The notes below the pieces were generated by a model that saw only the letters and a program-made list of their open reading frames with translations, did no database searches and was not told the DNA's origin. A stretch of DNA of 63,051 nucleotides, the filler included, from Stramenopiles sp. TOSAG23-6 (Eukaryota): NCBI GenBank assembly GCA_900128565.1. It is 9 parts of 9 records of this genome, joined end to end, with 100 filler letters (N's around TTAATTAATTAA, not from the genome) between each part and the next. Parts side by side here need not be neighbours in the genome. Positions count along the whole stretch, not along the records: positions 42,181 to 49,082 come from LT636632.1; 8 more parts are not named here. One strand, given 5' to 3'. The translations under genes and the position numbers were made by a program. This document shows positions 16,678 to 63,051 of this stretch, in pieces (within the stretch, counting starts at the first letter, position 1; every line of letters starts with the position of its first letter).

Positions 16678-16714
16678 AAAATAGCCGTTAAAATTGAAGC
16701 AGAGCCTTCAATCG
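16678..16714 (+). promoter_or_regulatory. Shared upstream element; second copy at 17993-18027
   Basis: AAAATAGCCGTTAAAATTGAAG(C)AGAGCC(C)TTCAATCG near-identical upstream of two genes. Confidence 0.5.
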
Positions 16715-17508: not shown

Positions 17509-18147
17509 TCTCTGTTGCAAGAACAACACTCTCTCTCTGTGGCAACAATTTTTCATGACAATTATTTGATTTGCAATATTTTTTTTACAAAATCTTTGAA
17601 AAAAATTTGTAATTGAACTATTTCAAATTGGATAAAAGTCTAAAATGTTGATGCATTATAAACAGTTTTTAAAATATTTAGAATAATAACGGTTGAAATT
17701 GGTGAAGCCATTTTTAACGTTATAAGTTAGTATTCTTATTTTAATATAAAAAACGATGGAACAAAACTGTAATGAGTTTGTTATTCTTTTTCATCCTAAC
17801 CCTAACCCTAGGACTTTTTCATTGAGAAATGAAGAATAATATATAAACTATCGCTCCATCCATTCTTGCTAAGTTGAGATAGTAACATTGTTTTACTATT
17901 ATTAAATCATAAATTGTCTACAGACACTTTTAAAGCAATTTTAAACTCATTTTATAACCACCAAAAAAAAAACGTCCCAAAAAAAATCTCTTAAAATAGC
18001 CGTTAAAATTGAAGAGCCCTTCAATCGGTCATCGCGGTCATCCATCGCGATTCGCGAATGGTTGGCCAAGTTGGCCCCAAAGTCCGGGGCCAGAAGCACG
18101 TTTGATTGACGAACGTTGCCATAATTACACATTTTACAACAAAGACA

Positions 18148-21026: not shown

Positions 21027-21126
21027 NNNNNNNNNNNNNNNNNNNNNNNNNNNNNNNNNNNNNNNNNNNNTTAATTAATTAANNNNNNNNNNNNNNNNNN
21101 NNNNNNNNNNNNNNNNNNNNNNNNNN

Positions 21127-24280: not shown

Positions 24281-27200
24281 ATGTCACTACGTGATTGGTC
24301 GGATAGTTACCGACCTACAATGTCGAGAAGTGTATCATCATCTCTACCAAGTGATTGTGGGGCGGTCACAATGAAGTCACTTTCCTCAACGATAAAGTTA
24401 TTATCAACTGAATGGGATGACTTTCAGCGATCACACACGAATAAAGATTTAAAACACTTTATGGCGGCGGAAGAACTAAAGAAAACGAATAAGCAACTTA
24501 ATGATGAGGTCACATCTTTACAAGAGAGTCTTATAGAATCTAATTCAGTATCAGAAGCGCGACGACAGGCGTTAGAAACTTTACAAGTCAACCACGTAAA
24601 AGAAATACAAAAGTTAGAAACCACAGTAAAATTTCTTCAGTTTCATTATGCCGAATTAGTACAGCAAACAACAAACAACATTGTTTCAAACGCATCTCAA
24701 GTAGAATCAAAGAATAACTACAAACATGAAGATTTCCTTTACGATATAATGCCTACACTACCGCACACACTTCCAACGCAGAATTCGATTTCGATGAAAC
24801 AGAATGTGTCAACAAACCCTAACCCTAGAACAATGTTTCATAGTAATCAATTAAAGTCTATTCCATCATTATCAACACTTATGTCACCAGCTGAGTTTAT
24901 ACATGCTGCTGCAAATGGAGAGACATCCATTTTGGAAAAATGTTTGTCTCGATTTGCTCTTGATGAAAATGAAGCTTGTACGTTTCTTTAAAAAAAAAAA
25001 AAAAATTCATACAACTTTTTTTTTATACGGAATTTTGTACCTAACAATTTTTTTCTCAATTTTTTTCTTTACAATGCATCAAAATTGGCAAAAATATACG
25101 GTACCGCTTTAGTATATAGTCTTGCACATCAAAAACTCGACACTGCAGAGTTACTTATGTATGTTTTTTTTTTTTTTTTTTTTGTATGATTTTTTTTTTT
25201 CGTACGAAATTTTGTACCTAAAAATTTTTTTTTTTTTTTTTCAAAAACACATTCATTCCAATGCAGATTTACAAATGAGAACAGGTGATGGTCGAACAAT
25301 TCTTCATTGTGCTGTATCGGCCAATGTATGTTTTTTCAAGATGAATTTCAAATTTATGTTTTTTCAAGATGAATTTCAAATTTATGTTGCAAATTTAAGT
25401 TTAAAAAAAAAAAAAAAAAAAAAATTGGTTTTAGGATTTTAGGTTTTTCTTTCTGTATGGTCCTTTTTGTACCTAATCAATTTTTTTTGTGACATATTTT
25501 TTCTATATACATTGTTTAACATTGATAAATATAGTACTTCAAAACCTTGATCAAGGTAAAATTAGAACTTTACAAAAAAATCATAAAAATAATGCTGATG
25601 CTGATGTTGATGTAGATTGCAGGAATGTGATGCTTTCAAGAACAAAATTAAATTATGTATATTCTCAAAATTCACAGAATTCACAAAATTATCAAAATTT
25701 TCAAAATTGAATTTCAACAATAACATAAAAAAAAACATTAAAAAAAAAATCATAAAAAAAAATCTGTACCTAACATAAACATGAAAAAAAAAAATTGAAT
25801 ATTTTTGCACATTATATCTGAATGAAGTTGACAATGATGGGAATACTGCACTTCATATAGCTATTTTGTATGCCACATCTTTAGATATTATTAAAACATT
25901 ATTATATCATGGTATTAATATAGATATAAAAAATAATAATGGATGTTCTGCGATGAATCTGTACGTTTTATTTTTTTCAATTTCAAATTTATTTTTTTTT
26001 TCGTACGAAATTTTGTACTTAAGAAAAAAAAAATACAAAAAAAATATTTTTTCATAATACAGTATAGAGGAATTACAAATCGAATGTAATGAAAATTCAA
26101 AATCTAACCCTAACCCTAGTATGAACCCTAACCCTAATGGTGGTGGTGGGTCTCACATTTTTTTACATCATACAAAGATGAATCGTAGACATCGTTATTA
26201 TACTAACCCTAACCCTAATAAAGACATAGAAAATTCTTCAAGAAATGAAATAAAAAATGAAATAAAAGCAATTTCATCAAACCCTAACCCTAATGACGTC
26301 ACAAAACCTAAAAAAAATAAAATAAATAAAAACCCTAAAAACCCTAACCCTAGACAAATCACAACACCAACAACACAATCCATTTCTAACATGACACAAA
26401 TTCTACAATCAAAACATTTTCAATTTTGGAATAAATCACAATCTGGAACGTTACACTATAAAGCGACAGAATTCCAACAAGCGTTTGAAGATTTTAAATA
26501 TGCAATATATCTAGCCAATACTTTCACAACAGAACTAAATATTTCGCATACCGACAAAGCGAGACTTCATGTACGTTTCATTTTTTTAAACCCTAACCCT
26601 AGTAGCCCTAACCCTACTATTCAATATTTTCAATATTTTCAATATTTTCAAATGTAATCCAAATTCAATCATTTTTTAACTGTATACATCTTTGAATATG
26701 TGTAAACGCATCCCGAATGTCATTGAACATGTTAATACTCAAATGTGTTCAAATGTTTTAGGGTTAGGGTTAAAATCTCTTTTTTTTTTTTCATTTTTTT
26801 TTTTACAATTTTACATTTTTACATTTTGACGTTTCAATTTCAGTTTGAATATTTTTCACACTACATTACAACTGTGGTCGTGCTGCGTTTCAATGCATTC
26901 CGAAGAAAGTCGTACGTTCATTAAATCATGCAAACAATGCAATAGATTTTGCAGGTGAAAAAGGATACAGTGGAGCATTGCTCATGAGAGCAAATTGCCA
27001 CATGTATGTAACCCTAACCCTAATTTTTTTTTTCAATTTTTTTTCTACAACATTTTTTCGTACGAAACTTCGTACCTAACGATTTTTTTTGATTTCGTGT
27101 TTTTTTCACACCACATGTCCTTAATGGATTTTCCTAGAGCTGTTCGAGATTTTAAAGAACTTGTTACGGTTTACCCTAGCAGTAATAAAAAGGTACAAAA

Positions 27201-27897
27201 AACAAGAATTAAACAACTAATTCGTGCTAAAACGTACAACAAAGCAAGTTTTTATGACGTCATGTCATTATTCATTATTGAATATCGAGAAAAAATAATT
27301 TGTACGAAATTTTTGTACCTAACCTTTTTTTTTTAATTTTTTTTTTTTTTTCACAATGTAGTGGAGTTTCAAAACATGCTACAGTAAATGAAATACGCAA
27401 AGCCTATCGTAGAGCATGTACGTTGTCATCATCTTTTTTTTTTTTTTGTTTCTTGTACAATTTTTTTTTTCGTACAAAAAAATGTTAATTTTTGAAATTT
27501 TGAAATTTTTGACATTTTTGACATTTTTTACCTAACAAAAATAATATTTTTTGATATTATTCCACAATAAATCCATTATTTGGCATCCAGATAAAGCTTT
27601 ACTTAGAGCAAAACGTGAACAACAGTATCAGAATCAACTCAATATGCAAAAAAAAGTGTGTCAAAATTATGAAACAAATACAAAAAAAACAAATACAAAA
27701 AAAAATAATCAAAATACACAAAAAAATAATCAAAATACACGAAATAATGATGAAAATGCAAATAATGTACAACAAATTCCTTGTGATATTGAAACATCTT
27801 GTTATAGGGCAACATTACATTTCAAGCGTATAAATGAAGCAAAACAAATTTTATGTAATTCAAGCGAACGTTCGTTTTCATCATGAATTTCAAATTT

Positions 27898-28057: not shown

Positions 28058-28157
28058 NNNNNNNNNNNNNNNNNNNNNNNNNNNNNNNNNNNNNNNNNNN
28101 NTTAATTAATTAANNNNNNNNNNNNNNNNNNNNNNNNNNNNNNNNNNNNNNNNNNNN

Positions 28158-32626: not shown

Positions 32627-35032
32627 TTATTTGACAGGTGGATCGACAGCGTTACAAAAATGTTTGTACTGAACACAAGTTGGATCTTTTACAGACCTGA
32701 ACTCCTCTATCAACGCATTCATATTTGGTCCAATAGATTGCGTGAGACGCAATTGATCCAGGACAGCAACAAATACTCTTGCAGGAACAGTCCCTTGCCT
32801 GTTTCGATCACGTGGTGTAAAATATGTCTTTGGAGACATACGCTTCTGTGACACAACTTTTCGTACCGCTGCAATTGCATCTGCCGCCGCATTTCCTCCT
32901 ATCCCAGAATTTGTTGCTTCCTCAACAAAATTACCTTCATGGATGGTTTCCTGAATATTACTAACCCAATCTTGATAATCAATCATTTCACCTAGCGTAT
33001 TATCGTAATGCTTATATCTGTCAGATAAAACTGCCAATTCAGCGGGAGTGATTTGGCCTGATCCAACAGCTGCATTTATAGCCGTGGCAAATTTTGCTTT
33101 TGAAATGTAACCTTTTCGTAATTTATCGTAGTCGTACATGAAATCACTCATATCCACGCGAGCTTGAGACACCAATGCAGCTACTTTTTTGTTGACGGAG
33201 GCAACTGAGATGAGCACACGTGAGTCGTTAGTCGATCCAATCTTTGTTTCATCATTGCTCAAATTCTTTTGAAGATTTTTTTTCTCAAGTGCCAAAAGTC
33301 TTTCTTCTACTTTTTCAATGGCAGAAATAAAATCTTTGTAATTCACTAAATTTGGACCTGCTTCGTATGCATATGATACAAGTTTTGCATCTGTTTGTGA
33401 CAAGGAACCCATAATCATTGTCATGGCACGACGAAATTGACTCTTTGTGATCGTNCCCCGCCGTATTCGATCAAAGTCTTTAAACACTGGGTGAATAAGA
33501 ATTCTGTCCTTCTTTACTCGTGCTGATGTCCGTTCCAATAAATCGCGTAATTGGTCTTCTTCTGCTTCATTTAATCGGTCAAAAGGATCAATCTCCATAT
33601 CATTTTGTTTTAACCGTATAGCTTTGGCAACGTCGTTTTCGGGATCTTGTTCCAATCCTCTAATAATATCATCCATGTAATCAACAAATGATCGATATGC
33701 ACAAAACGAACGTCCTTGTCCGTCTGTTAGTTGTGGAGCAGGATACTTATCCGCAATGGATTCCACTTCCTTTACACTTAATTCAAATCCAGCAGTACTC
33801 AGCGCTCTCATTAATTGGGTTCTTTTAATGACACCGCGTTTTAGTGGATCAAAATCCATGAAAAAATCAGAACATTTAATGTTAAGTTTTTTTGCTCGTA
33901 ATTTCATCCTTCGCAGAACTGCATCTACAGATACATGTAGAGGTTTTCGTGATGCTCTTGTTTTAGATAAAACTGACATCTTATACCCTTTGTTTGGTTG
34001 TGAAGCACGAAATTTACGCTCAATTTCTTTAGGATCCAAATCGTTAATGTCCTTCATGAAACGAAGATACGCTACACCACGATCTTTATCAGTATATTTC
34101 TCAATAATTGCTCTCAACTCTGCAGGCGAACAGACACCTAGAGCAAGTTTATTATTCGATAAACTTCTTGTAAACATATTTTCTGTGAGATGTTTAGAAT
34201 TTCGTCGGTCAAAATCTTGAAAATTTGGTTTTAATGCAATATTATATTCTCGGATTCGTCTTGCTAATTTTTGAACACCTGACTGAGCCAAATCAAAACC
34301 AACAGATGATTTGCCTTCCTTGTCATCATTTTGATTATCTGACTTTCCTCCAAGAAGTATTGTAAAAAATATTTCAAAATTTTTTTGATTGTAAACATCA
34401 TTAGGTACAAAATGAACTACAAAAACAATTTAAAAACAATTTAAAAAAAATTAAAAAAAAAAAAAAACATACCCGCTCACGTCGACATTCATAAATATCA
34501 TCCAACAAAGCATTATATCCAATTTTATCATTCGCTTTTTCATGATATATCAAAGATGCACATTGTATCTCAGGGCCCATGTATTGTAGAAAAATATTCA
34601 AAAAAAAATTAAAAATTGTTAGGTACAAAAATTTTTTACCAAAAAAAAAAAATTCAATTTCAATTTCAAATTAAAAAAAAAAATAAAACATATATCATCG
34701 TCGTCCCACCCGAGTTATTCACTGCACGAATAAATTGTGATTTTGAGACATATCCTGAACGTAAATTATCGAAATCGACTAAGCAGCCTTTTACATCAGA
34801 ATTAGATGCAGCAAGATCAGTAATGAGTTGCTTTGCATATTTTCGAGATTTTGATTTTGGATGAATTCGAGCTGTTGGACTCTTTCGTCCACTGGTATTT
34901 TTTGGTTTGGTCGAATCACCATATTTGTCCTCAACAATGTCAATCATTTCCAACATGTATTGTTTAGAAATATTTCAAAATTTGAAATTTTTGTTTGTAC
35001 ACATGTAAAAATCATTAAAATCATTAAAATCA

Positions 35033-35076: not shown

Positions 35077-35272
35077 NNNNNNNNNNNNNNNNNNNNNNNN
35101 NNNNNNNNNNNNNNNNNNNNTTAATTAATTAANNNNNNNNNNNNNNNNNNNNNNNNNNNNNNNNNNNNNNNNNNNNGTTTTTGTCAATTTTTTTTTTTTT
35201 TTTTGTTTTTTCATAGAAAATTTCATACCTAACAAAAAAATAAAAAATAAAAAATATTGTACAAAAATATAT

Positions 35273-37221: not shown

Positions 37222-40124
37222 ATGAAGACATCACAGGCTACAATGCCAAATTTTGAAACAAAACAGATGTCAGCACAAGACGTTGTAGAAAAACAGCCAC
37301 CAACACAAATAGCAATCGAAAATGTTGTACAGAAACAACCAAAAGAATTAACACACAACTCTGTAGAGGCTACATGTGAAGCTTATTTTTCCCCGTGGGA
37401 TCCAACGGATTGGGTTCATATTGCTTGGGATATTCTAGTTGCGGTTGCTATTACGTATAATTTAGTTTTTTTTCCTCTGCGATTAGGATTCAATTTTGGG
37501 TCAGATAGCGTTTTTTTAAACGCTATAGACACAATCGCAGACCTGCTATTTATAATAGATATAATGGTAGGGTTTAATACTGCCGTAGAAATCACAGTGC
37601 GTGGCAAATCACGACTCATATTTGATAAGGAGGTTGTCATAAAGAAATATTTAGAAGGTTGGTTTTTTATTGACCTAGTATCGATAGGAATTCCATTTAA
37701 CTTGGTGCATTCTCCAGAACTGCAATTTTTGAGTTTGCTAAAAGTTCTTCGTCTTTTCAAACTGAACAAATTAGTGTCCGGTTTATGGTCTCCTTCACCG
37801 GAGGGTAAGAAAATGTTTACTCTAGGGAAATTAATGACAATTATTATTTTTGCAGGTCATTTAATTGGTTGCATTTATTGGTTAATAGGTTGCGAAGATT
37901 TTTACCCCCAGCCAGACTCCTGGATCGAAGCTGCAGGTTTAATTCAAAACTCATACACAACATTAATAGATAATTACATGCCTGGGTTTTATTTTGCTAC
38001 TATGACTCTGACATCTGTAGGATATGGAGACATTAGTGCAAGTACTACAAGTGAAATGGTTTTTGTATCAGTCATTATGCTTCTTGGAGCAGTTTTGTAT
38101 GCTCTAGTTTTAGGTATGACCACTTCTGTTCTTGGTGCACTTTTCGCAAGAGATCAAGCTTTAGTGGATAAATTAGAAGTTTTTACTCAATTTACGAATA
38201 CGTTTGCATTGGACTCTAAATTGCACAATGAAATCCAAGGAACTATGAAATTTCAATGGAAATTATCTCGAAGTTTCAATATGGAGAGAACCCTCGACGT
38301 TTTACCTCATTCTTTGAGAAATGTATGTTTTATGTTTTTTCAAATTCGAATTTTTTTTCGTACGAAATTTTGTACCTAACGATTTTTCTTTCAAATATTT
38401 TTCCAAAATACATAAAACATTATCCGAGTTACATACACCGCTGATGTGTAGAGTTCCATTCTTTGCTGCTTGTGATTCATCTTTCTTAACCGAAGTAGTA
38501 TCAAGACTAAAACAACATGTTTGTCTTAAAGGTAGTAAAATAATGGAAGCAGGAGAAATCGGTACTGATATGTATATACTTGGCGAAGGTGTGGCTAGCT
38601 TACAAGCATCAAAAAATTTTGAATTGCGTCGATTAATTACGGGTAGTTTATTTGGCGAAATTGAACTATTAGTTGAAAATTCTGAATCTAGACGTTTGTT
38701 TAATGCTGTTGCTCAGACACCATCAGAATTTTATTCAATTTCTCAACGGCATTTTGTGTATATTTTAAGCAATTTCCCAGACATTAACAAATCAATCAAG
38801 GATTTAGCTCTACAACGAGTTCGAAGTTTCACACGAAAACTTTCAATGTATTTTTATCGACAATCTGGTTCAATAAATAAACCAAATATACAAGAAAGAA
38901 AACGATATCCATGGGGTGATACGTTACTTATTCGATTAATTTGTGCACGATCATTGAAGGCGATGGATTCAGGTGGTGCAAGTGACCCTTATGCAACCGT
39001 CACAATAGGAGAAGCGAAAAGTATCACTGGAACGAGGTTAGGTGTCACTGAGTCTACACAAGTGCAATTTGATACTCTAAACCCAACCTGGAATGCAACT
39101 TTTGGTATAGAAATTACTAAGGAACATTTTCCTGCATCTTTATTTGATAACCCTAGTAGTGAAGGATTGACCATTACAGTGTATGATAAAGATCAATTTG
39201 ACTCAGATGATGCCATTGGTGTTTGTGTTATTCCTTGGGATCGAATTTTACCTAATGGTAAAAAGAAAAGGTCATCTCTCAGAGTCAAGAAATGGGAGAA
39301 ACTGAGACGTCCTAATGTAACTTCAATAACAGAAGATTTGATGCATCCTTTGGGTTCAATATTTAGAAAAATTACACATAATAGTAATACTAGCAATACA
39401 GCAAAGATAGTACCTGAACAATTAATTACACAAAGTAATAACTCGTCAGCAATAATACCTGAACAAACGAAAACTATAGAAAATAAAGAATGTAATGATT
39501 CAAATAGAAATAAAGAAGAAAAAGATTTGAATTATCAAAATACGTATCCTAAGCACCAACTAGTTCATGAAGATACTCATAACATGTGTGAACACCTTGA
39601 AGATTCATCTAGCGACGACGATTCGACTGAAAGTTTAGGAAGTATTTGTTACTCCGTAAGTTGGAAACAAAATGAAATATCAATGGGACATGTATGTTTA
39701 ATTTTTTTTCAAATTCGAATGTTTTTTTCGTACGAAATTCTGTACCTAACGATTTTTTTTCAAATAATTTTTCAAAATACATTTACTAGCTAGAACACGA
39801 GAGAAAGAACGACAATTATGTATGAGTATTCCAAGTGAACGTGTTAAGCAGCAATTTAAGTCTGCCTGTCAAATTCAGTATAGTTGGCGAAAAATGTGGG
39901 CAATAAAAAAGAAAGGTAAAATTCAAGAAGAATTAAAAACAAACTCTTTACCAGAAAACAAACTCTCACAAGTAAATGAATTTGGGCGAAGATCGAGACT
40001 TTTATTAGAAATGCGGCGAGTAAATAAAACAGAGCAGAATGTTTCATTGCTACTTGAAAGAATTAGACAATTGAAACAAAATATAAGAAAACATAAGGTA
40101 CTTACATCCTTTGACGCACATTAG
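37222..40124 (+). CDS. Cyclic-nucleotide-binding voltage-gated K+ channel (EAG/CNG-like) with C2 domain and IQ motif; GT-AT introns 38323-38413, 39692-39782
   Basis: S4 LLKVLRLFKL, filter TSVGYGD, CNBD FGEIELL, C2 DSGGASDPY..YDKDQFDSDD, IQYSWR. Confidence 0.9.
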
Positions 40125-40241: not shown

Positions 40242-42080
40242 TCAATTGATACCATGCTTTTCTTGTTGTTCTTGTTGATGTATTTCCAAAATAAACTTTG
40301 CACATTCTTCTTGAGTAAGTCTGTGCAAATCACTGACCTTGTGCTGATGAGCAACACCATAATGTTGATCAGCTACATATATTGTAAGAAATATTTTTTT
40401 GGAAAAATTGTTAGGTACGAAAAGTAGTATGAAAAAATAAATTCGAAATTCAAAAAAAAGAACGCACCTCAACTTGCTCTTGCCAAAATGTAGACGTAAT
40501 AAATTGTACAGCACTATCTTCAGAATGAGCTTGACGTTGAATAAGAGCAGCAACAGAAGCTCGATGAGTTGAATCAAGTGCTTGGTCAATTTCATCAAAC
40601 AAGTAGAATGGTGCAGGATCACATCTCTGAATAGCAAATATAAGTGTCAAAGCAACAAGAGCTTTTTGACCACCAGAAAGTTGCTCCATTAGCACGGGCT
40701 CCCCAGCACCAGTAAAAGACACTTTCACACTGATCCCATTTATTCTTTTAACTTTTCCTGTAGCATCTTTATCGTCTTCGTCTGAATCACTTTCCTCGTC
40801 TGAATCGACTTCAGTGTTGCCTATATCTGAAGCATTTTCCTTAGATTTGCCTTTGCCTTTGCCTTTATCCTTCTTACTCTTCTTTTTCTTTTCTTTTGTT
40901 AAAACGATGCAACCATTTCCAGCTGGAACCAGCTCCTTAAAAACATTTGAAAAATGTTTTGCAACATCAGTAAATGTACGCATAATTGCCTCATCTTTTC
41001 GTGCATCTAATACTTTAAGAAGATCTTCAATAGAACGATGACCTTCGTCTAATTCAGTTTTTCGAGCCAACAATTGTTCACGTTGCTCTGAAAAGTTTAC
41101 ATACTGGTCAAGTGCTTTTTTGTTAACATGAGAATACTTTTTAAGAGCTTTACCTTTTTGTGCGAGTAATTTCATTAATTTTTTTCGATTAAAAGTACGA
41201 TATGACTGCAATTCACTTTCAGGAAGAGAACCCAATTCACTGATTTTCGCCTTTGAAGAATCTCTTTTTTCAATTAAAAGACTTCTTTTATTTGTTCTTT
41301 TTTCCATTTGTTTAGCTTGCTCTGCCAAAGACGCTTCCCGTTCTTGCTTCGTTGCAGTAACTTCCTCTTGGATGCCTTGTAGCGTTGAAATACGCTTACT
41401 TAATACTCTTTTTTCTTCTTTCAATTTATTAAGTTGCTCATTACAATCACTAGAAGACTTTTGTAAGACTTTTAGTTGCCTTCGTTTAGATGACAATACA
41501 CGAACTCTTTCTTCCATATCCATCGTTGAAGAACCTCCAATACCAGCTGTTAATTGTTGTGAAATCTCAAGATGTCGACGTTCAAGATTCGTCGATAATG
41601 ACATTTCTAATGCCGATTTTTGACTTCTGCATCGATCTAACTCAGCTTCGGCATCACTCGCTTTTCGTCCAACTTTTTTTAATTCTGCTGTCAAAAGACG
41701 TAACTTAGATTGCTCAGCTTTAGATAATTGTTTTAGTAGAGGAGTACCAATCTCTGCGCTTAGACTATCACATTTATCGGATAAGACTTTCGCAGACGAT
41801 TCTAAATCTAAAGCTTGGTTTTCTTTTAAAGTTCGCGATGCCGACCAATTTTTTATATTCTTATCAGAATGATCCCTTTCAGTTTCACATTGTTGTAATT
41901 CAGCACGCATGTGTTGCCGTTTCATTGCAGCCTGTTGCATTTGGCCCATAAGGACAGTCACTCTTTGATCTGCTTTACGTGATAGTTCTGAAACTTTTCG
42001 TAATTCTTCTCGAATTTCATTTAATTCAATCGAAGCAGCAGCAACTTGAGCCTTTGCAGCCATCTTTGAAAAGCGCGAAT
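40242..42080 (-). CDS. SMC3: Cohesin subunit SMC3, C-terminal part; GT-AT intron 40377-40467
   Basis: YSHVNKKALDQY, LSGGQKALVAL, DPAPFYLFDEIDQALD, QVE|VADQHYGV. Confidence 0.96.
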
Positions 42081-45000
42081 NNNNNNNNNNNNNNNNNNNN
42101 NNNNNNNNNNNNNNNNNNNNNNNNTTAATTAATTAANNNNNNNNNNNNNNNNNNNNNNNNNNNNNNNNNNNNNNNNNNNNTTTCATCGACTTATCTGTTA
42201 TGATGTTAGTGTCTGAAGAAACATTTTCTTTTTCTGTGGACTTTGTTTGAGTTTTTAAAGAGTCTGTTGAATGAATGTTGGATGATTCTAATGCTTCATC
42301 CACTTTCATTAGGGTTAGGGTTTCATCCACTTTCATGTCGTTACCATTCATTTTATGGGGCACTTTATCTTTGGCTTTTGTTTCTTTTTCATTTTGTAAT
42401 GACCCATCTTTATCTTCATCGTTTGTAACTTCCATCGTTCCTATCTCATTTTTGTTATTTACATTATTTGTAGATGAAACAGAAGCCAGACGTTCTTCAG
42501 AGTTTAACGTTGCATTCGATTCTATGGTAATGATACTAGCTTTACCTCCTTTAGCTGCCTTCTTTGCTTTTGAACGATTTGCAATTACTTTGATTCTATT
42601 TCGATATTCTTTTGCCTTCGAGTGCCACTTTCGCATTTCGTGTTTTGCTTCTTCCAGTGCCGTTTTTAATGAAAGAATTTGTTGTTTTTGTACAATTAAA
42701 TCATTTTTTAGAGATATTACTGTACTACTACAAGTTTCACTAGAACTAGATGATTGAACACTTTTGACACGTTTCATTTTCAGAGTCAAACTGACTACCT
42801 TTTGGTCTGATATTTGAAGTTTTTGTTCGAGCTTTGCAACAGTACTCTCTGCTTCATGCCTTTCCTTCATAGCATGGGCTTTAAATAATAACAAAGTTTG
42901 CTTTTCTTCTCTTAGTTGATCGACTTCATCTTCCATGTATTTTGGAAAAATATTTCAAAAAAAAATTAAAATTTGTTAGGTACAAAATTTTTATAAAAAA
43001 ATAAATTCGATTTTTTTGTTAAAAAAAAAAATAAAACATACATCATTCTCATACTATCTGCATAACCTTGAGACGTTACTCCACCTAATCCAGCTTGACT
43101 CCCCCCACCAGAGATACCACCACCAAGACGTTGTTGCATTTGAAGTTTTTTCAAACGACGTAAAGTTTTTTTATGATTATTCGTCTCTATGTATTGTGGA
43201 AAAATATATTTTGTTTAGTAAAAAAAAACGTTAGGTACAAAATTTTGTATGCAAAATAAAAAAAATGAAATTGGTAAAAAATTCATGATGAAAACATTCA
43301 ATTCTAATGCTGCATCGAGTTCAACTTCACGCATGGATGGACCTGTTGATACAACGGTGTTTGCAATTTGCTTACGAACTCGAGCATTTTCACGTTGTAA
43401 TTTTCTATTTTGTTGGTGTTTCGCAGCTGATTTAAGAGTCAACTCTTGAATATCCTTAATTTTCATCACTAGCTTTTTATTCTGTTTCACACTTTTTTCT
43501 TCCAGTTGTTTGATTTGTGCTTTCCGTAACTCATTTTGTTCCTTTTCAGCAGCTAAAGAGTCAGATAATTTTTGGCATGTAGAATTTGCATTTTGTAATT
43601 TTTCATTCTTTTCTTTTGTTGCTAGTGTCCATTTTGCTTTGGCAGCATTGAAAGTTTCAAATGCAGTAGTAGCTTCATGTTTAGCTTCATCACGACAGCG
43701 TTTTAATTCAGCAGAAGCAATAGCGGATGCTTCTGAACTTTCTATATCATGATCTATCTGAGTCCTGATGACATGATCACGATAATCTGAAAGGAACATC
43801 GAGTTGCGTTCATTTAAAAGATCTCTTTCTGCATACATTTTGGCGATTTGATTTTTGCTGCTTTCTTTCTCTTCAAATAATTCCTTCTCAAGTCGATCAT
43901 TGTCAGCCTGTCGTCCAGATTTCTCACATTTTAACATATAAGTAGTTTTTGTCAAAGATTCTTGAAGACTCTCAGCTCGTTCATACTCTGTATGATATTT
44001 GGTTTCAAACATATTCTTCAACCGCGAAGCGTCATCTAATTGACCTTCTAATTCTTCTGCTCGCTCTGCGGATTCTGCACTTAATTGAGTCCGCAAATTT
44101 TCATTTTCATTTGTCAGTCTTTGGAGCCTTTCAGACACCTCAGGGTTTAATTCAGTACATCCTTCCCCTATTCCATTTGAATGAGAAAGAAGTGAAGCAT
44201 CTGCCTGAATTCCCAATTGTTGAACTGCATTTTCTAGACCTTTTTGAACATCTACAGCAACTAATCGATCTTTATGTAAAGCATCACACACTGTTGTGAG
44301 TTTTGCTGCTTTATGCTTATTTCGTAAAGCTTCTGCTCTTACTTCGCTTAATTCAACTTCTTGAGAAGTGACTCTTTGCTTATATTCAGATAGTCTTGTT
44401 TTCAATGAAGGAATCGTTTTTACTTGAGCTTCAAGTGCAATATTTTCAGAAACTAGAGATTGAATTTGTTCTTCTAACTTCTTAGTATGTCTTTTGAGAT
44501 CCATTGCATGTATTTTGGAAAAATATTTCAAAAAAAAAAATAAAATTTGTTAGGTACAAAATTTCGTACGAAAAAAAAATTCATACAAAAAAAAAAAAAA
44601 ACACATACATTAAGCCAGTAGGAGGAGATGATCGTTTTTTACTCTTTGATTTTTTCTTTTTCACTTTTCTCAATTTCATATTTTGCATTTCCATCATAAA
44701 TTGATCACAAATATCATTAGGTATGAAATTTCGTAAGAAAACAAATTACACACAAACTTCAAAAATTACAAAAATTACAAAAAAAAAAAAAAAAAAAAAA
44801 AAATTGGGCCTTTTGTTAAAAAAAAAATGTGGGTTTTTTTTTTTTTTTTTTTTTTTNNNNNNNNNNNNNNNNNNNNNNNNNNNNNNNNNNNNNNNNNNNN
44901 NNNNNNNNNNNNNNNNNNNNNNNNNNNNNNNNNNNNNNNNNNNNNNNNNNNNNNNNNNNNNNNNNNNNNNNNNNNNNTTTTTTCAATTTCATTTTCTGCA

Positions 45001-45554
45001 TTTCGGCCCTTGAATTTAAAAAAAAAAAAAATAAACAATTGTTAGTTAGTAACACATTAAAAAAAAAAAAAATGAAAAAAAAAAAAAATTGAAATTATTT
45101 TGAAAAAAAAAAAAAAATTGAAAAAAAAAAAATTTTTTGAAAAAAAAAAAAAATTGAAATTATTTTGAGATGAATAATAAAATTGTACATCATCGATGAC
45201 ATTCCTCCACCACCACTTTTTTGACCACGTGTATTTTTTTTATTTTTTTTCTTTCTTTGTTTTGTCTTTTTCAGTGTAACGCCATTTTGAATTGAACCCA
45301 GTAAATTTTGTGGCATGCCAAAAGATTTTTTTTGGATTTTTTTTTGTGTATTTTTTTTTGTGTTTTTCGTGTTTTTATTAAAACTTTGTAACGAAGTGTT
45401 TAAAACACATTCAATATCTTTTGTACTAAACCCTTCCCCTTTCATTCTCATTTTAATAACAACACCAGGAGCACCTGTATTTTTCATATCAAACCATTTT
45501 TGTAATTTTGGGTCATGAGGATCTATTGCTTTAGAGAATATGTTTTTTAGGAAA

Positions 45555-45585
<31 letters not shown>

Positions 45586-45677
45586 GGGAAAAATTTTTCT
45601 ATTAAAAAAAAAATAAAAAAAAAAAAAAAAATTTTTTTTTTTTTTTTTATTTTTTTTTTAATAGAAAAATTTTTCCC

Positions 45678-45708
<31 letters not shown>

Positions 45709-45723
45709 TTTCCTAAAAAACAT

Positions 45724-46654
45724 ATTCTCTAAAGCAATAGATCCTCATGACCCAAAATTACAAAAATGGTTTGATATGAAAAATACAGGTGCTCCTGGTG
45801 TTGTTATTAAAATGAGAATGAAAGGGGAAGGGTTTAGTACAAAAGATATTGAATGTGTTTTAAACACTTCGTTACAAAGTTTTAATAAAAACACGAAAAA
45901 CACAAAAAAAAATACACAAAAAAAAATCCAAAAAAAATCTTTTGGCATGCCACAAAATTTACTGGGTTCAATTCAAAATGGCGTTACACTGAAAAAGACA
46001 AAACAAAGAAAGAAAAAAAATAAAAAAAATACACGTGGTCAAAAAAGTGGTGGTGGAGGAATGTCATCGATGATGTACAATTTTATTATTCATCTCAAAA
46101 TAATTTCAATTTTTTTTTTTTTTCAAAAAATTTTTTTTTTTTCAATTTTTTTTTTTTTTTCAAAATAATTTCAATTTTTTTTTTTTTTCATTTTTTTTTT
46201 TTTTAATGTGTTACTAACTAACAATTGTTTATTTTTTTTTTTTTTAAATTCAAGGGCCGAAATGCAGAAAATGAAATTGAAAAAANNNNNNNNNNNNNNN
46301 NNNNNNNNNNNNNNNNNNNNNNNNNNNNNNNNNNNNNNNNNNNNNNNNNNNNNNNNNNNNNNNNNNNNNNNNNNNNNNNNNNNNNNNNNNNNNNNNNNNN
46401 NNNNNNAAAAAAAAAAAAAAAAAAAAAAACCCACATTTTTTTTTTAACAAAAGGCCCAATTTTTTTTTTTTTTTTTTTTTTTTTGTAATTTTTGTAATTT
46501 TTGAAGTTTGTGTGTAATTTGTTTTCTTACGAAATTTCATACCTAATGATATTTGTGATCAATTTATGATGGAAATGCAAAATATGAAATTGAGAAAAGT
46601 GAAAAAGAAAAAATCAAAGAGTAAAAAACGATCATCTCCTCCTACTGGCTTAAT
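45724..46654 (+). CDS. Fragment of an actin regulator with WH2-like motifs (mirror copy on - strand at 44609-45539)
   Basis: DPKLQKWFDMKNTGAP..KMRMKGEG, LLGSIQNGVTLKKT, MMAEMQKMKLKK, MMEMQNMKLRKV. Confidence 0.55.
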
Positions 46655-46755
46655 GTATGTGTTTTTTTTTTTTTTTGTATGAATTTTTTTTTCGTACGAA
46701 ATTTTGTACCTAACAAATTTTATTTTTTTTTTTGAAATATTTTTCCAAAATACAT

Positions 46756-49082
46756 GCAATGGATCTCAAAAGACATACTAAGAAGTTAGAAGAACAAATT
46801 CAATCTCTAGTTTCTGAAAATATTGCACTTGAAGCTCAAGTAAAAACGATTCCTTCATTGAAAACAAGACTATCTGAATATAAGCAAAGAGTCACTTCTC
46901 AAGAAGTTGAATTAAGCGAAGTAAGAGCAGAAGCTTTACGAAATAAGCATAAAGCAGCAAAACTCACAACAGTGTGTGATGCTTTACATAAAGATCGATT
47001 AGTTGCTGTAGATGTTCAAAAAGGTCTAGAAAATGCAGTTCAACAATTGGGAATTCAGGCAGATGCTTCACTTCTTTCTCATTCAAATGGAATAGGGGAA
47101 GGATGTACTGAATTAAACCCTGAGGTGTCTGAAAGGCTCCAAAGACTGACAAATGAAAATGAAAATTTGCGGACTCAATTAAGTGCAGAATCCGCAGAGC
47201 GAGCAGAAGAATTAGAAGGTCAATTAGATGACGCTTCGCGGTTGAAGAATATGTTTGAAACCAAATATCATACAGAGTATGAACGAGCTGAGAGTCTTCA
47301 AGAATCTTTGACAAAAACTACTTATATGTTAAAATGTGAGAAATCTGGACGACAGGCTGACAATGATCGACTTGAGAAGGAATTATTTGAAGAGAAAGAA
47401 AGCAGCAAAAATCAAATCGCCAAAATGTATGCAGAAAGAGATCTTTTAAATGAACGCAACTCGATGTTCCTTTCAGATTATCGTGATCATGTCATCAGGA
47501 CTCAGATAGATCATGATATAGAAAGTTCAGAAGCATCCGCTATTGCTTCTGCTGAATTAAAACGCTGTCGTGATGAAGCTAAACATGAAGCTACTACTGC
47601 ATTTGAAACTTTCAATGCTGCCAAAGCAAAATGGACACTAGCAACAAAAGAAAAGAATGAAAAATTACAAAATGCAAATTCTACATGCCAAAAATTATCT
47701 GACTCTTTAGCTGCTGAAAAGGAACAAAATGAGTTACGGAAAGCACAAATCAAACAACTGGAAGAAAAAAGTGTGAAACAGAATAAAAAGCTAGTGATGA
47801 AAATTAAGGATATTCAAGAGTTGACTCTTAAATCAGCTGCGAAACACCAACAAAATAGAAAATTACAACGTGAAAATGCTCGAGTTCGTAAGCAAATTGC
47901 AAACACCGTTGTATCAACAGGTCCATCCATGCGTGAAGTTGAACTCGATGCAGCATTAGAATTGAATGTTTTCATCATGAATTTTTTACCAATTTCATTT
48001 TTTTTATTTTGCATACAAAATTTTGTACCTAACGTTTTTTTTTACTAAACAAAATATATTTTTCCACAATACATAGAGACGAATAATCATAAAAAAACTT
48101 TACGTCGTTTGAAAAAACTTCAAATGCAACAACGTCTTGGTGGTGGTATCTCTGGTGGGGGGAGTCAAGCTGGATTAGGTGGAGTAACGTCTCAAGGTTA
48201 TGCAGATAGTATGAGAATGATGTATGTTTTATTTTTTTTTTTAACAAAAAAATCGAATTTATTTTTTTATAAAAATTTTGTACCTAACAAATTTTAATTT
48301 TTTTTTGAAATATTTTTCCAAAATACATGGAAGATGAAGTCGATCAACTAAGAGAAGAAAAGCAAACTTTGTTATTATTTAAAGCCCATGCTATGAAGGA
48401 AAGGCATGAAGCAGAGAGTACTGTTGCAAAGCTCGAACAAAAACTTCAAATATCAGACCAAAAGGTAGTCAGTTTGACTCTGAAAATGAAACGTGTCAAA
48501 AGTGTTCAATCATCTAGTTCTAGTGAAACTTGTAGTAGTACAGTAATATCTCTAAAAAATGATTTAATTGTACAAAAACAACAAATTCTTTCATTAAAAA
48601 CGGCACTGGAAGAAGCAAAACACGAAATGCGAAAGTGGCACTCGAAGGCAAAAGAATATCGAAATAGAATCAAAGTAATTGCAAATCGTTCAAAAGCAAA
48701 GAAGGCAGCTAAAGGAGGTAAAGCTAGTATCATTACCATAGAATCGAATGCAACGTTAAACTCTGAAGAACGTCTGGCTTCTGTTTCATCTACAAATAAT
48801 GTAAATAACAAAAATGAGATAGGAACGATGGAAGTTACAAACGATGAAGATAAAGATGGGTCATTACAAAATGAAAAAGAAACAAAAGCCAAAGATAAAG
48901 TGCCCCATAAAATGAATGGTAACGACATGAAAGTGGATGAAACCCTAACCCTAATGAAAGTGGATGAAGCATTAGAATCATCCAACATTCATTCAACAGA
49001 CTCTTTAAAAACTCAAACAAAGTCCACAGAAAAAGAAAATGTTTCTTCAGACACTAACATCATAACAGATAAGTCGATGAAA
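46756..49082 (+). CDS. HOOK-like long coiled-coil protein fragment; introns 47964-48074 (GA-AT), 48222-48328 (GT-AT); mirror copy on - strand at 42181-44507
   Basis: ELNPEVSERLQRLTNENENLR resembles the HOOK motif; exons join in frame. Confidence 0.65.
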
Positions 49083-49259
49083 NNNNNNNNNNNNNNNNNN
49101 NNNNNNNNNNNNNNNNNNNNNNNNNNTTAATTAATTAANNNNNNNNNNNNNNNNNNNNNNNNNNNNNNNNNNNNNNNNNNNNGAATTTATTTTTTCGTAC
49201 GAAATTTTGTACCTAACATTTTTTTTAGATTTTTTTTGAAATATTTTTCTAAAATACAT

Positions 49260-49635
49260 AATATTCAAGGTGCAAAACAACCTAGATTTATGCATATTGG
49301 TTCAAAAAAAACAATTCGTTATAAAAATCGTATTATTCTACCGAATTCAGGTTCTGGCAAAATTATTGGACAAATATGTTTTATTTTTTTTTTTAACAAA
49401 AAAATCGAATTTATTTTTTTCATACGAAATTTTGTACCTAACAAAAAATTTTAAAATTTTTTTGAAATATTTTTCCAAAATACAAGATGATAATGCTTTG
49501 TGTTTCAAATTGATCATTGAAGGAGTTTGTATGAATTTAGGTATATGGTGGTTTTCTGCAGCATTAAGAGGTGGACCTAAAATATTACCTGTGGTCAATG
49601 TTGATACAAAAGAAAGAAATCAGTCAAAACAATGA
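49260..49635 (+). CDS. Last two exons of an unidentified gene; AT-AA intron 49374-49485
   Basis: KIIGQ|DDNALCF joins ORFs 49236 and 49270 in frame. Confidence 0.6.
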
Positions 49636-52386: not shown

Positions 52387-54012
52387 ATGGTTTTGAACTA
52401 TTGTTTTAACTATGATGACGATGAGAATATTCATCGAGGCTGTGACCAGGAGAGTTCAACACCGGAAGGCGACAACTCCAATAATGTTAGAAATGTCTCA
52501 ACACATGAAAGACAAATTAGAAGAATTCCGCGACTGAAATGTAATATTATCAAGTGGTTAAAACTTCTCCTACCACTGATAATTTTGACACTTGCTGGTA
52601 TACTTGCTGTAAAACTTAGTGGTGATTCAATACTTGTCGTTGGAGAATATATGGAAGATAACAAACCTGTTTCATGTATGATATATGTTGTAGTATTTAC
52701 ATTAGCTGTGTCCTGCTGTTTATCTAGTTCAGTATTTACGATACTGGGCGGATATATCTTTGGATTTTTTCAAGGCTTTTTATTATCTCTTATCTCGATG
52801 GTATGTTCGATGTTTTTAGCCTTTTTTATCATTCGGGTATGTATTGGACGTCGTCAGGGAGGCTGCTGTAAAAAAACAAAAAAAACAAAAAAAACAAAAA
52901 AAACAAAAAAAACAAAAAACAACNATCATAGAGAATTAGTCTTATGTGATTCACCATCAAACGTTTTATGCGATTCGGCTTCAAAAGTATCTCCAGAGAA
53001 AATAAGTGAGTATATTTTTGATACTACTACATTACGTGGACGAATGAGAAATTGGTTAATCAAAGAATATTTTAGTTTGAAAGTTTTAGAAGATTTAATG
53101 AAAACACGACCGATTTATGCCATTGTCATGATTCGTTTAACATATATTCCAACATTTGCAAAAAATTATGGTGTAGCAATTCTAGATGCACCTGTTAAAG
53201 AGGCAATGTATGCAACAATCATATCTAGTATTTACTCATCAGTCATTTGGGCATATATGTAAGTTATCAATGGTATCAATGTAGAATTTAAATTTTTTTT
53301 TTTAGAATTTTTTTAGAATTTTTTTTTTTTTAGACTTTTAATTTTTAAATTTGTACCTAAACAATTTTACATTTTTTTTTTAAATATTGTCTCAAAACAC
53401 AGGGGAAGCGCTACGGAGTCAATGGTGGATACTCTCAACGAATCAAGTCCAAATGAAGATGACAGCATTGCTCAACAGATTCTTGAGTTTTCACCGATAC
53501 TTTGCTCTTGTTTTTTTACACTAGCAATGATTTTTGTATGTAACCCTAATCAATGTGCAATGTATTTTTTACAATGAAAATTTTGTATCCACTAACATTT
53601 TTTTTTTGTTTAAAAAATAAAAATATTTTTTCACAATATATATAGTGCGACGTAAAGTTAAGCAAGCCATCGATAGAGCTAGACTTCAGGTTCAAGAGGA
53701 GAGTCAAAGTCAAATTCCAAATAATATGTACGTTTTATTTTTTTTCAACAAAAAAATCGATTTTTTTTTTCGTACGAAATTTTGTACCTAACGATTTTTT
53801 TTTTGAATATTTTTCCAAATAATATTGCTCAAAGCCCTGTAAATATCACTGAAAATCTTCTTATTACTCCGATGCAGAATACTGCCATAAAATCCATCAA
53901 ACCACCGAGTCTAACAAAACCACCCAGTGAACAATCACATTGTGAAACTGTAGAGATACAACCAAAAAGTCAAAATCGTGTTGTAATTCCGCCACCGAAT
54001 TGTCCTGTGTAA
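52387..54012 (+). CDS. VTT/DedA (TMEM64/TVP38-like) membrane protein; introns 53259-53402 (GT-AG), 53536-53641, 53728-53825 (GT-AT)
   Basis: GGYIFGFFQG, IRLTYIPTFAKNYG, WAYM|GS. Confidence 0.85.
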
Positions 54013-56074: not shown

Positions 56075-56174
56075 NNNNNNNNNNNNNNNNNNNNNNNNNN
56101 NNNNNNNNNNNNNNNNNNTTAATTAATTAANNNNNNNNNNNNNNNNNNNNNNNNNNNNNNNNNNNNNNNNNNNN

Positions 56175-60155: not shown

Positions 60156-61578
60156 ATGGCCGAAGAAATAGAGAAACACGTACTTCGGAAATATGAAATT
60201 TGCCAGAAACTTGGAAAAGGTGTACGTTGCATTTTTTATACGAGTCTTCGTGTAGTCACATTCTACGTAATAGTTTTGTATGTTGGACACTAGAATTTAT
60301 ATTTTACAACTTCTAATTATACCATTATTTATCATATCATTTAGTAACAGGCATATGGCATAGTTTGGAAAGGTATCGAAAAAAAATCACGAACTACAGT
60401 TGCTTTAAAGAAGTGCTTTGATGCCTTTCGTAACGCCACTGATGCACAGAGGACATATCGAGAGGTCATGTACTTACAAGAGTTGGGACATCACGATAAT
60501 ATAATCAAGTTACTTAATATAATCAAATCTGAAAATGATAGAGACATATACCTTGTATTTAACTACATGGAAACTGATTTACATGCTGTAGTCAGAGCTT
60601 CGATTCTTGAAGACATCCACAAGCAATACATCATCTACCAATTATTAAAAGCATTAAAATATATGCATTCTGCAGAACTTTTACATCGAGATATTAAACC
60701 CTCAAATCTTCTATTGAACTCAGACTGTCATATACGAGTATGTGATTTTGGATTATGCCGATCGGTGAAAGAAATACAATCAGGACCTAATCCTGTACTG
60801 ACTGATTACGTTGCTACGCGTTGGTACCGGGCACCTGAAATTCTTCTTGGTTCAACTCATTATACCAAAGGTGTTGATATGTGGTCTTTAGGTTGTATTC
60901 TAGGTGAAATGCTTCTAGGAAGACCGGTTTCTCCAGGGACATCCACCATGAATCAATTAGATCGAATCATGTATGTTTTCATTTTATTTTTTTTTGAAAC
61001 TTTTTTTTCATACGAAATTTTGTACCTAACAAAATTTTTTAGATTTTTTTGAAATATTTTCTGAAATTTCATGGAAGTCACCGGACGGCCCACAAAGGAA
61101 GACATTTCTGCTATACGTTCACCATTTGCTGCTACAATGCTTGAAAATTTGCCTCCAACAAAACCCAGGCCATTAGCCGAAATTTTTTCAACTGCCTCTG
61201 CCGAGGCTCTCGATATGATGAGGTGCTGTCTAAGGTTCAATCCTGAAAAAAGAATATCATGTACGTTTTCATTTAATTTTTTTTTGAAACTTTTTTTTTT
61301 TTTTTTTTCATACGAAATTTTGTACCTAACAATTTTTTTTAGATTTTTTTGAAATATTTTCACAAAATACATGTGAGGAAGCATTACGACATCCATATGT
61401 TGCTAAATTTCACAACACGGAAGATGAACCAGTTACCGATGCACCAGTAACACTAAAAGTCGATGATAACAAAAAGTACTCCGCAGCCAGTTACAGAGAA
61501 AGACTCTATAAAGAAGTGAAGCGACGTAAACAAGAAGCTCGAAGAAGACGTCATCGACGAGAAAATGCGAGCCAGTGA
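60156..61578 (+). CDS. MAPK15: MAP kinase ERK7/MAPK15; canonical intron 60222-60350, GT-AT introns 60971-61072 and 61261-61372
   Basis: [61 protein letters not shown]. Confidence 0.95.
60971..61072 (+). other. Family intron, GT-AT
   Basis: ATC AT|GTATGT...TTTCAT|G GAA GTC; the TAG at 61040-61042 would give a stop. Confidence 0.88.
61261..61372 (+). other. Family intron, GT-AT
   Basis: TCA T|GTACGT...AAATACAT|GT GAG GAA GCA. Confidence 0.85.
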
Positions 61579-61825: not shown

Positions 61826-63051
61826 TTAATGAGGTGATGTTTCAGCACCTTTTTGAACGTCTACGGGTTGGCCAGTCGCACTTTCAGCTGTTTCCGTAAA
61901 TGGTGAATATTTAGCCAATTGTCTTACTGGTAACTTCATTGCATCTCTTCGAAAAGGATCACCCAATTCACGAGTTACCATTACCTCAATAATTGTTGTT
62001 TTTCCGTGTTTCATTTGATTTTCTTCGGCTTGTTGTAAAGCAGGTCCGACCTCTTCAATTGTATTTACAAGAATACCCTCAGCGCCCATTGATTTTGCAA
62101 TTTCTGCAAAGGATCCAACACGTGGTAAGTTAGTTCCAACATAACGATCACCAAACCATAATACTTGATTTTTTTTCTCAGCACCCCATTGACCGTTGTT
62201 AAAGACAACATGGATTATAAAAAATATTTCAAAAAAAAATCTAAAAAAATTTGTTAGGTACAAATTTTCAAAAAAAAAAAAAAAACATAAATTCAAAATT
62301 GAAATGAAAACGTACCTGTGTCATTGGAATATCTTCACGTACACAGGTGAGAACTTCACATAATTGCATACCCCATGCACCATCACCAGAATACCCCATG
62401 TATTATCAAAATATATTTTTTTTTTTTACAAAAATGAATTGTGTTAGATATGAAATGTTCATACAAAAAAATATTTTGAAAAAAACATTTTGGAGGGGAA
62501 AAAAAAACTTACATTGCAAAACGATCAGGATTCGCAATTTTTGCACCCATTGCTGCTGGAAAAGAATATCCGCAATTACCAAACGTCATTGCTCCAAGAA
62601 AGGATTTAGGTTCTTCAAATCTTAAATATGAGTTGGATACGGAACAAATATTTCCAATATCAGTCGCAACAATTGCACGTTTTGGCATAGCTTTTTCCAA
62701 TTCGCGCAAAACTGTTCGAGGTTTTAAAAACCCATCAGGGGCGTTTCCTTGTGACATTGACGTGAGTTCAGCTTCCCATTCTTCTTTAAATGCTGTCGCT
62801 GTCGCTAAACGTTCCGATTTCGTGTTTGTTGAGACAACATCAAGAGACAAAAGACGTTCAAAAATATCTTTTGTAGCTGGTTTTACATCTCCATTCACTC
62901 CTACATGAACATCCATGAATTTTGGAAAAATATTTCAAAATTTTCTAAAAAAAAAATTGTTAGGTACAAAATTTACTATAAAAAAAAAATCGATTTTTCT
63001 GTAAAAAAAAAAATAAAACATACATGGCAGGATTGTTTCCAACTCGTTTTG
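61826..63051 (-). CDS. xsc: Sulfoacetaldehyde acetyltransferase (ThDP-dependent), C-terminal part; GT-AT introns 62210-62315, 62398-62512, 62915-63023
   Basis: TDIGNICSVSNSYLRFE, FGNCGY, GDGAWGM, QWGAEKKNQ, TRELGDPFRRDAMK. Confidence 0.88.

Follow-up and report, generated by a model that had tools for sequence, protein, structure and literature searches.

The stretch of DNA considered here (hereafter, the window) comprises 63,051 nt from Stramenopiles sp. TOSAG23-6 (assembly GCA_900128565.1) and harbors numerous short introns, most of which end in AT; the one that served as the point of departure occupies positions 48222–48328 of the plus strand. The window consists of unlinked contigs of ~7 kb, sorted by decreasing length and chained by N44-TTAATTAATTAA-N44 linkers (6948–7047, 13993–14092, 21027–21126, 28058–28157, 35077–35176, 42081–42180, 49083–49182, and 56075–56174), so genes lying across a linker from each other are not genomic neighbours. 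Its GC content amounts to ~26–40%, and only ~8% of it falls outside open reading frames (ORFs) of at least 70 codons or hits of the intron family described below.

The intron at 48222–48328 (107 nt, GT...AT) follows directly an exon-terminal AT at 48220–48221 (plus strand, ...tgagaatgAT|GTATGT), a putative upstream copy of a target-site duplication (TSD), and exon 2 begins at 48329; the coordinates of the initial annotation (48220–48330) are thus right. The letters of 48220–48330 read AT|GTATGTTTTATTTT...TTTGTACCTAAC...GAAATATTTTTCCAAAATACAT|GG, and the intron itself, starting with GTATGTTTT and ending with CAAAATACAT, is laid out as GTATGT...TTTGTACCTAAC...AAAATACAT. It comprises a 5' splice site GTATGT (48222–48227), recognized by the 5' matrix of the introns of the window, a branch-site-like box TTTGTACCTAAC (48277–48288), whose function is predicted by its likeness to the yeast branch box, and a 3' box CAAAATACAT (48319–48328, by the 3' matrix) with the intron-terminal AT at 48327–48328, all on the plus strand. 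The boundaries were set by homology to the repeat family of which the intron is a member (nhmmer, 41.1 bits). Since a protein search with the downstream exon (48330–49082; E <= 1e-20, in the length range searched) yielded no match, the case for this particular intron is made by the reading frame: the frame test gave offset 0 at a margin of 51, the frame being open over 57 codons on one side of the cut and over 251 on the other.

The contig bearing this intron (42181–49082) is an inverted duplication with the arms 42181–44856 and 46407–49082 and N121 gaps at 44857–44977 and 46286–46406. The contig probably arose as a chimera during DNA amplification; chimeric palindromes of this kind would be typical of amplified single-cell DNA. 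Three introns appear twice in the window because this contig is palindromic, among them the intron at 48222–48328, whose identical twin lies in the other arm (42935–43041, minus strand) and was not counted. The census given below covers 37 complete non-duplicate introns; the boundaries of 34 of them were set by homology to the family, and three more are introns missed by the family profile. Left out were the three duplicates in the left arm of the palindrome, eight copies truncated where a contig ends (near 13985, 14127, 21192, 28264, and 56229 on the minus strand and 20975, 35202, and 49206 on the plus strand), and three weak unresolved hits at 35679 (minus), 61610 (minus), and 46516 (plus, with a palindrome twin).

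By their ends, the 37 introns divide into 28 GT–AT, one AT–AT, one GA–AT, five GT–AG, one GT–TT, and one AT–AA; thus, 30 end in AT, five in AG, one in TT, and one in AA. They are 91–187 nt long (median 109) and occur at a density of 0.62 per kb, making up 7% of the unique sequence. The longest owes its 187 nt (25326–25512) to a tandem duplication of ~28 nt near the 5' end, where ATGTTTTTTCAAGATGAATTTCAAATTT stands twice. The 5' matrix (G35 T36 A33 T19/C12 G32 T36) corresponds to the extended consensus GTAYGTTTT (Y, pyrimidine), and the 3' matrix to TTTYCAMAATACAT|G, with A at −2 in 36 of the 37 introns, C at −3 in 27, and T, G, or A at −1 in 31, five, and one, respectively. The AG-ending copies are family members with ACAG in place of ACAT, e.g., the one at 25961–26062. 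The family intron at 34355–34472 (minus strand) apparently has TT as its last two bases (ACAATACTT|), a cut that keeps the frame, and provides another acceptor that is neither AG nor AT.

With up to one mismatch allowed, the window holds 40 occurrences of the 12-mer TTTGTACCTAAC versus 0.43 expected, and the end of this box lies 30–57 nt (median 41) from the intron 3' end across the family. The branch box of yeast is UACUAAC, and by likeness to it TTTGTACCTAAC is the predicted branch site. Written in RNA letters, the family signals are AU|GUAUGU, UACCUAAC, and YAU. Between the box and the 3' end, an unused YAG occurs in seven and an unused YAT in 27 of 34 introns; therefore, the cut is not simply made at the first YAT or YAG past the branch, and either a longer 3' box or the distance of 30–57 nt must count in the choice of the 3' site. 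The family consensus contains perfect short palindromes, AAATTCGAATTT and TTTCGTACGAAA (e.g., at 38341–38352 and 38355–38367), and its TTTGT-ACCTA-ACAAA segment is able to fold into a hairpin whose loop holds the box. An Rfam search of the window returned no match and hence no small nuclear RNA gene within it.

The membership of these introns in one repeat family, introner-like in its distribution over unrelated genes, is well supported. When the surroundings of the box TTTGTACCTAAC were aligned, they resolved into units of ~105 nt alike from end to end, and an nhmmer profile built from 20 curated copies gave 46 hits in the window. The inner parts show nearest-neighbour identities of 0.59–0.92, for which the description of the copies as "nearly identical" in the initial annotation was too strong. 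The likeness extends to blocks outside the splice signals that are common to introns of different genes in mosaic combinations: AAAAATCGA was found in five unique introns, TTAGATTTTTT in six, and TTTCATACGAAA in eight, the latter two blocks occurring nowhere else. Contig ends fall within 25 nt of a copy in seven of 16 cases vs. 9.6% expected (p = 4e-4), a pattern of breakage usual for assemblies at high-copy repeats.

The same picture emerged from four seawater runs of other studies (two of DNA and two of RNA), matched as contigs. Summed over contigs, the depth at the conserved core reached 1,590–17,992 (X3) vs. ~4 over exons, a difference of three orders of magnitude that is not to be read as a copy number. 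At the GT–AG copy ending in ATACAG and lacking the exonic AT (25961–26062, plus strand; supported by the frame test), the match to seawater contigs of other copies begins at 25960 and stops at 26061, i.e., at the ends of the intron, and the consensus of the loose ends corresponds to the family 5' and 3' sequences. A metagenome scan with the pattern TATGTTT-gap-TTTGTACCTAAC retrieved 116 loci, none of which contained a family copy according to nhmmer, so these are chance hits. The contig with the copy at 25961–26062 also carries telomere-like short repeats AACCCTAACCCT (26104–26137, 26230–26300, 26590–26625, and 27010–27023), found at ~17780 as well; within exons they are in frame and translate as NPNP, and they also occur in the introns 26571–26685 and 27004–27116 and in one non-coding stretch. 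Telomere-like seawater contigs pile up on them.

The position of the cut was assessed by comparing the homologous cut with cuts one base to either side, an intron being counted as informative if the margin was 10 open codons or more. Of 34 introns tested, 24 were informative, and 23 of these were in frame when cut right after NAT or NAG (p = 1.7e-10). The neighbouring family intron at 47964–48074 (plus strand), with the 5' end GAATGT (GA...AT) and no exonic AT, belongs here with offset 0 and a margin of 62.

Homology to proteins of known structure leads to the same cut. Two family introns interrupt an ERK7/MAPK15-like MAPK gene on the plus strand, CAT|GTATGT...TTTCAT| at 60971–61072 and CAT|GTACGT...ATACAT| at 61261–61372. 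The three exons align to chain 6v6a_A at residues 22–232, 235–295, and 297–355, and the residues outside this alignment are the first one of exon 2 and the two junction codons (296 in the case of the second intron), leaving no gap at either intron. The conceptual GT–AT product also aligns in one ungapped block to P0121 (JGI source, 2,826-nt contig; 323/336 identical, 96%) and to P0122 (Logan source, 1,263-nt contig; 285/331 identical, 86%); therefore, intron-less nucleic acid joined as predicted exists in nature. The first MAPK intron in the window (~60202–60349) is of a different kind, an unrelated GTACGT...AACAG intron, and P0121 starts with seven residues resembling an unspliced intron tail. 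The likeness of these residues to a family-type tail, at the place of the ~60202–60349 intron, hints that relatives differ at this site.

In the SMC3 gene, the intron GAG|GTGCGT...ATATAT|GTAG (40377–40467, minus strand) was delimited by alignment to chain 6yuf_C, exon A ending one residue past 1162 and exon B starting at 1164. As it has no exonic AT, it is readable as GT–AT only, and the AG located 4 nt downstream of the cut is out of frame. Another unambiguous GT–AT intron, CAG|GTACGT...ATCCAT| (62210–62315, minus strand), occurs in a thiamine-diphosphate enzyme gene, whose conceptually spliced product shows one open frame through the GDG...NN motif. In the J-domain gene with the intron CAT|GTACGT...ATAAAT| (27418–27572, plus strand), the spliced reading keeps the AYR...HPDK spacing of the J-domain consensus. 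Conceptual splicing of three introns besides those of MAPK and SMC3 produced continuous open frames. Acceptors of this type are not confined to the family: a kinase gene has a non-family intron AAT|GTAAGT...GAATAT| (10657–10763, plus strand), in which the AG 5 nt upstream of the end is out of frame, and the intron AAT|GTAAGT...ATACAT| (62398–62512, minus strand) was missed by the family profile. The occurrence of AT acceptors outside the family means that the splicing machinery of the organism accepts YAT in general.

Several observations weigh against such a cut or narrow its basis. At the standard cut, one informative intron (46655–46755) does not keep the frame; the exon upstream of it is rich in A, and part of that exon may be untranslated. 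The source of P0121 and P0122 may be RNA or intron-less DNA. Among the matches listed for the four seawater runs, all of them contigs, neither a spliced joint nor an empty-site joint appeared, the listed joints being cross-matches between copies, and contigs from an RNA library (X7, records 31 and 32) span an intron into the exon, i.e., they represent unspliced RNA or DNA. Moreover, the census is our own curation of a single 63-kb window of unlinked contigs. Still, the GT–AT cut is well supported by frame and homology, both of them drawn from sequence comparison rather than from splice junctions in RNA reads.

As to the host, the closest named relative of the RPL5 encoded in the window is a EukProt coding sequence labelled GSMAST32 (85% identity), the other named RPL5 relatives being mostly oomycetes, diatoms, bolidophytes, and pelagophytes; the named relatives of the MAPK are raphidophytes and oomycetes. 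Judging by these affinities, the host is most likely a marine stramenopile (MAST) of the MAST-3-like type and not an animal, which fits the seawater runs. A larvacean tunicate had been considered in view of the TSP1, EGF, and Sushi domains, the AT-ending introns of Fritillaria, and the ranking of RPL5 matches in PDB, and was ruled out by the stramenopile relatives of RPL5 and MAPK. The domains in question belong to an intron-free ORF of 1,842 codons (1471–6999, minus strand) combining TSP1, EGF, Sushi, RING, and WW modules, i.e., animal-like adhesion modules in an apparent stramenopile.

Overall, we hold it quite probable that an introner-like family has populated the genome of a MAST-3-like stramenopile, each copy carrying its own splice signals and being cut out after YAT. 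The kinship of the copies, their exact GT...AT boundaries, and the surplus of exonic AT in front of them are established; how the element spreads is an inference. According to this scenario, copies of an element of ~91–187 nt (median 109) would have come to lie in many unrelated genes of a genome that is compact and rich in AT. Each copy would bring a GTAYGT 5' site, the box TTTGTACCTAAC, U-rich tracts, and a 3' box CAAAATAC followed by AT, and the spliceosome would remove it by cutting after YAT, not YAG, exactly restoring the reading frame. The insertion might proceed at the DNA level at an AT that becomes duplicated, the downstream copy of AT turning into the last two bases of the intron. 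This insertion with a duplicated AT is our leading guess, a tentative one, and a spread via RNA into AT| sites is nearly as likely.

The initial annotation had proposed a miniature inverted-repeat transposable element (MITE) with a 2-bp AT TSD supplying the acceptor. What has stood of this proposal is its introner part, these being true introns with an AT 3' end from one family scattered over unrelated genes, and the enrichment of AT in front of them. Exonic AT precedes 21 of the 30 AT-ending introns, essentially the 20 of 31 counted originally, at an AT background of 8.7% within long ORFs and of 11.4% where an exonic GT follows (binomial p = 8e-14). An insertion with duplication of AT is further favored by the link between the similarity of copies and the duplication of their flanks, found in 13 of the 14 copies with a nearest-neighbour identity of at least 0.84 vs. 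six of the 20 others (p = 3e-4), and by an excess of exon-end/intron-end repeats of at least 4 nt (five vs. 1.67 expected, p = 0.009).

Three of the copies on the plus strand illustrate the latter point. In CAA|ATATGT...ATACAA| (49374–49485), the exon and the intron both end in AA, with a common suffix of 4. The copy at 27004–27116, with AACCCTAACCCTAA near its 5' end, displays the 6-nt repeat CCACAT, and in the copy at 53728–53825 the last 13 nt of the intron equal, by eye, the last 13 nt of the upstream exon (TTCCAAATAATAT, 53715–53727 and 53813–53825; the computed suffix was at least 12, the longest measurable), with three differences from the usual family 3' end. In both the 27004–27116 and the 53728–53825 copies, the intron end departs from the consensus exactly as the exon does. 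The 13-nt repeat may reflect repair or homology-guided insertion.

Other observations speak against the MITE-and-TSD part of the proposal. Exonic AT is as common before AG-ending copies (3/5) as before AT-ending ones (21/30; Fisher p = 0.64), and it also precedes three diverged or non-family GT–AT introns. When exon ends were compared with the end of their own intron and with those of other introns, following Gozashti et al. 2022 (PMC9860276), the match ratio was ~1.0 at every position; in the accessible part of that paper, a match pattern shared across introns is treated as ambiguous between a TSD and an insertion preference, and the TSD call is therefore ambiguous by the same rule. The AT dinucleotide is self-complementary, so a direct repeat of it is indistinguishable from a two-base extension of the pairing of the ends. 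The complementarity of GTAT and ATAC ends does exist in the intron at 48222–48328 and in the consensus; both ends are present in only eight of 37 copies, and the perfect complementarity of the termini never exceeds 4 nt, below the 6 nt or more used as the criterion of a terminal inverted repeat (TIR) by Gozashti et al. 2022 (PMC9860276). Nor is it better within a copy than between copies (permutation p = 0.89), and the sense strand of the element is rich in T over its whole length, unlike that of an element with real inverted repeats. Finally, no antisense or clearly intergenic copy was present among the 37 curated ones, a comparison of low power in a window that is ~92% ORF or family sequence and holds three weak hits besides. 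A recent burst of intron gain, as envisaged in the initial annotation, is plausible and undated; P0121, at 96% identity, has neither of the two MAPK family introns, though its source may be RNA.

Alternatively, the family may spread through RNA, a possibility we regard as somewhat doubtful in absolute terms and to be kept in play. An excised intron would be reverse-spliced into another transcript at an AT| site, and its DNA copy would then recombine into the genome. The moving unit would be the entire intron with its terminal AT; no TSD would arise, and the exonic AT would be a preferred context of landing or splicing. Indeed, the repeat unit coincides exactly with the intron, as shown by the loose ends at 25960 and 26061, all 37 curated copies are in sense orientation inside genes, and the strong one-strand T-richness, the short termini, the AT/AT match that is not locus-specific, and the indifference of exonic AT to the AG or AT end point in this direction. 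Families of introners without TSD or TIR are on record, along with a reverse-splicing proposal for the introners of fungi (Gozashti et al. 2022, PMC9860276, in the part accessible). The AA/AA copy and the exon-end/intron-end repeats of 6 and at least 12 nt are, however, unexpected under reverse splicing, and the missing antisense and intergenic copies are weak evidence in so gene-dense a window. No reverse transcriptase came up in the analysis, in which no search for one was made.

The exonic AT could also be no trace of insertion at all but the 5' exon consensus of the organism, analogous to AG|GT elsewhere, with AU|GUAU possibly pairing with AUAC-AU at the 3' end or with a changed U1; we consider this unlikely. 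In its favor, exonic AT stands before 24 of 37 introns irrespective of how they end, the GTAAGT introns outside the family among them, and the self-complementary AT makes the direct repeat an inverted one as well. Minimum-energy RNA folds of six copies bring the ends together in two of them. In four of the six, the fold energies are, however, no better than those of shuffles (z from +0.38 to −1.17; the other two gave −2.3 and −4.0), no compensatory change was seen, C at +4 going with A at −6 in 10 copies, and the association between copy similarity and flank duplication is not predicted by such a consensus.

It is very improbable that there is no mobile family and that the likeness of the introns comes from very strict splice signals only. 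Regions resembling signals do hold much of the similarity (the 5' and 3' boundary motifs, the box TTTGTACCTAAC, and the U tracts), but the shared blocks in mosaic combinations lie outside plausible signals, contigs break inside copies, the summed depth is very high in independent runs, and introns that lie outside the family and differ in sequence are removed from the same genes or elsewhere in this genome. Equally improbable are AT–AC or U12-type introns, in which the cut would lie two bases further left. Such a shift to AT...AC would leave the product unchanged in the 21 copies with exonic AT, and the box resembles the U12 branch box. Introns of the U12 type begin with RTATCCTT and carry their branch box near the acceptor. 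The family has GTAYGT, not RTATCCTT, its box is situated 30–57 nt from the 3' end, a greater distance than in U12 introns, and the nine AT-ending introns without exonic AT, including that of SMC3 checked on a solved chain, are readable as GT, GA, or AT...AT only. The least probable of all is an excision of the elements from DNA, in the manner of the TA-flanked eliminated sequences of ciliates: the elements are short, AT-rich, flanked by 2-bp repeats, and removable with exact restoration of the frame, and P0121 and P0122 could derive from element-free DNA, but the elements possess the full set of spliceosomal signals and are joined to exons in RNA-library contigs, and stramenopiles are not known to have nuclear dimorphism.

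Few signals in eukaryotes are as constant as the AG that closes introns. An organism with about four-fifths of its sampled introns ending in AT (30/37), with nearby AG ignored, is a natural system for studying the choice of the 3' site, and the density of the family (~0.6 introns per kb) bears on intron gain on the genomic scale. Gene finders assuming GT–AG introns would break most genes of this organism. It is conceivable, albeit doubtful on present grounds, that a whole lineage of heterotrophic marine stramenopiles moved its main 3' signal from YAG to YAU in connection with an introner burst in which the acceptor came from the duplicated AT. If true, this would be the second independent case, after Fritillaria, of transposons rewriting the splice code, in this instance with a retained 5' GU, and a lineage-wide YAU shift would account for the scarcity of gene predictions in these single-cell genomes.

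In our literature search, no report of such introns was found for MAST or other heterotrophic stramenopiles, although supplementary species lists (e.g., that of Gozashti et al. 2022) may bear on this. The accessible main texts of two MAST genome papers contain no discussion of splice sites, and single-cell MAST-3 assemblies are reported there with few predicted genes, a shortage that may be linked to GT–AT introns. Introners and TSD-derived splice sites as such are already known, as are genome-wide non-AG acceptors tied to repeats (in Fritillaria and Amoebophrya).

Among the known systems, the U12-type AT–AC introns share with the family the possible AT...AC reading and a box resembling TCCTTAAC, but their defining 5' site and box-to-3'-end distance are not matched. 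The introners of Micromonas and Aureococcus, the latter also a stramenopile, represent a genome-scale intron gain by a short element as well; they have 3-bp or 8-bp TSDs, GT–AG ends, and, in Micromonas, TIRs, whereas the termini of the family described here are perfectly complementary over 4 nt at most (PMC11282704, PMC9860276, as far as the accessible parts go). The invasive intronic elements of Amoebophrya, another marine protist, are repeats forming non-canonical introns with direct repeats at their borders but differ in their variable TSDs of 3–5 nt, strain-specific TIRs, and alveolate host (PMC11282704, in part). The high share of AT-ending introns is paralleled in Fritillaria borealis and F. 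pellucida (34% and 44%, respectively), where the 5' site is preceded by a YAY triplet that also makes up the final three intron bases and a MITE-like origin has been proposed for the non-canonical introns (Soo et al. 2026, PMC13326754, in the part accessible). These larvaceans are, however, animals whose introns mostly have AG at the 5' end (PMC13326754); the present introns retain GT there, and protein likeness places their host among the stramenopiles. In the introners of Chrysochromulina sp., the TSD is 4 bp long and the acceptor is AG, in contrast to the 2-bp AT repeat, not locus-specific, and the AT acceptor of the present family; in both, a short non-coding repeat without clear TIRs has entered unrelated genes of an aquatic protist, bringing the 5' site within the element and taking the acceptor, as may be the case here, from duplicated target bases (PMC9860276, in the part accessible).

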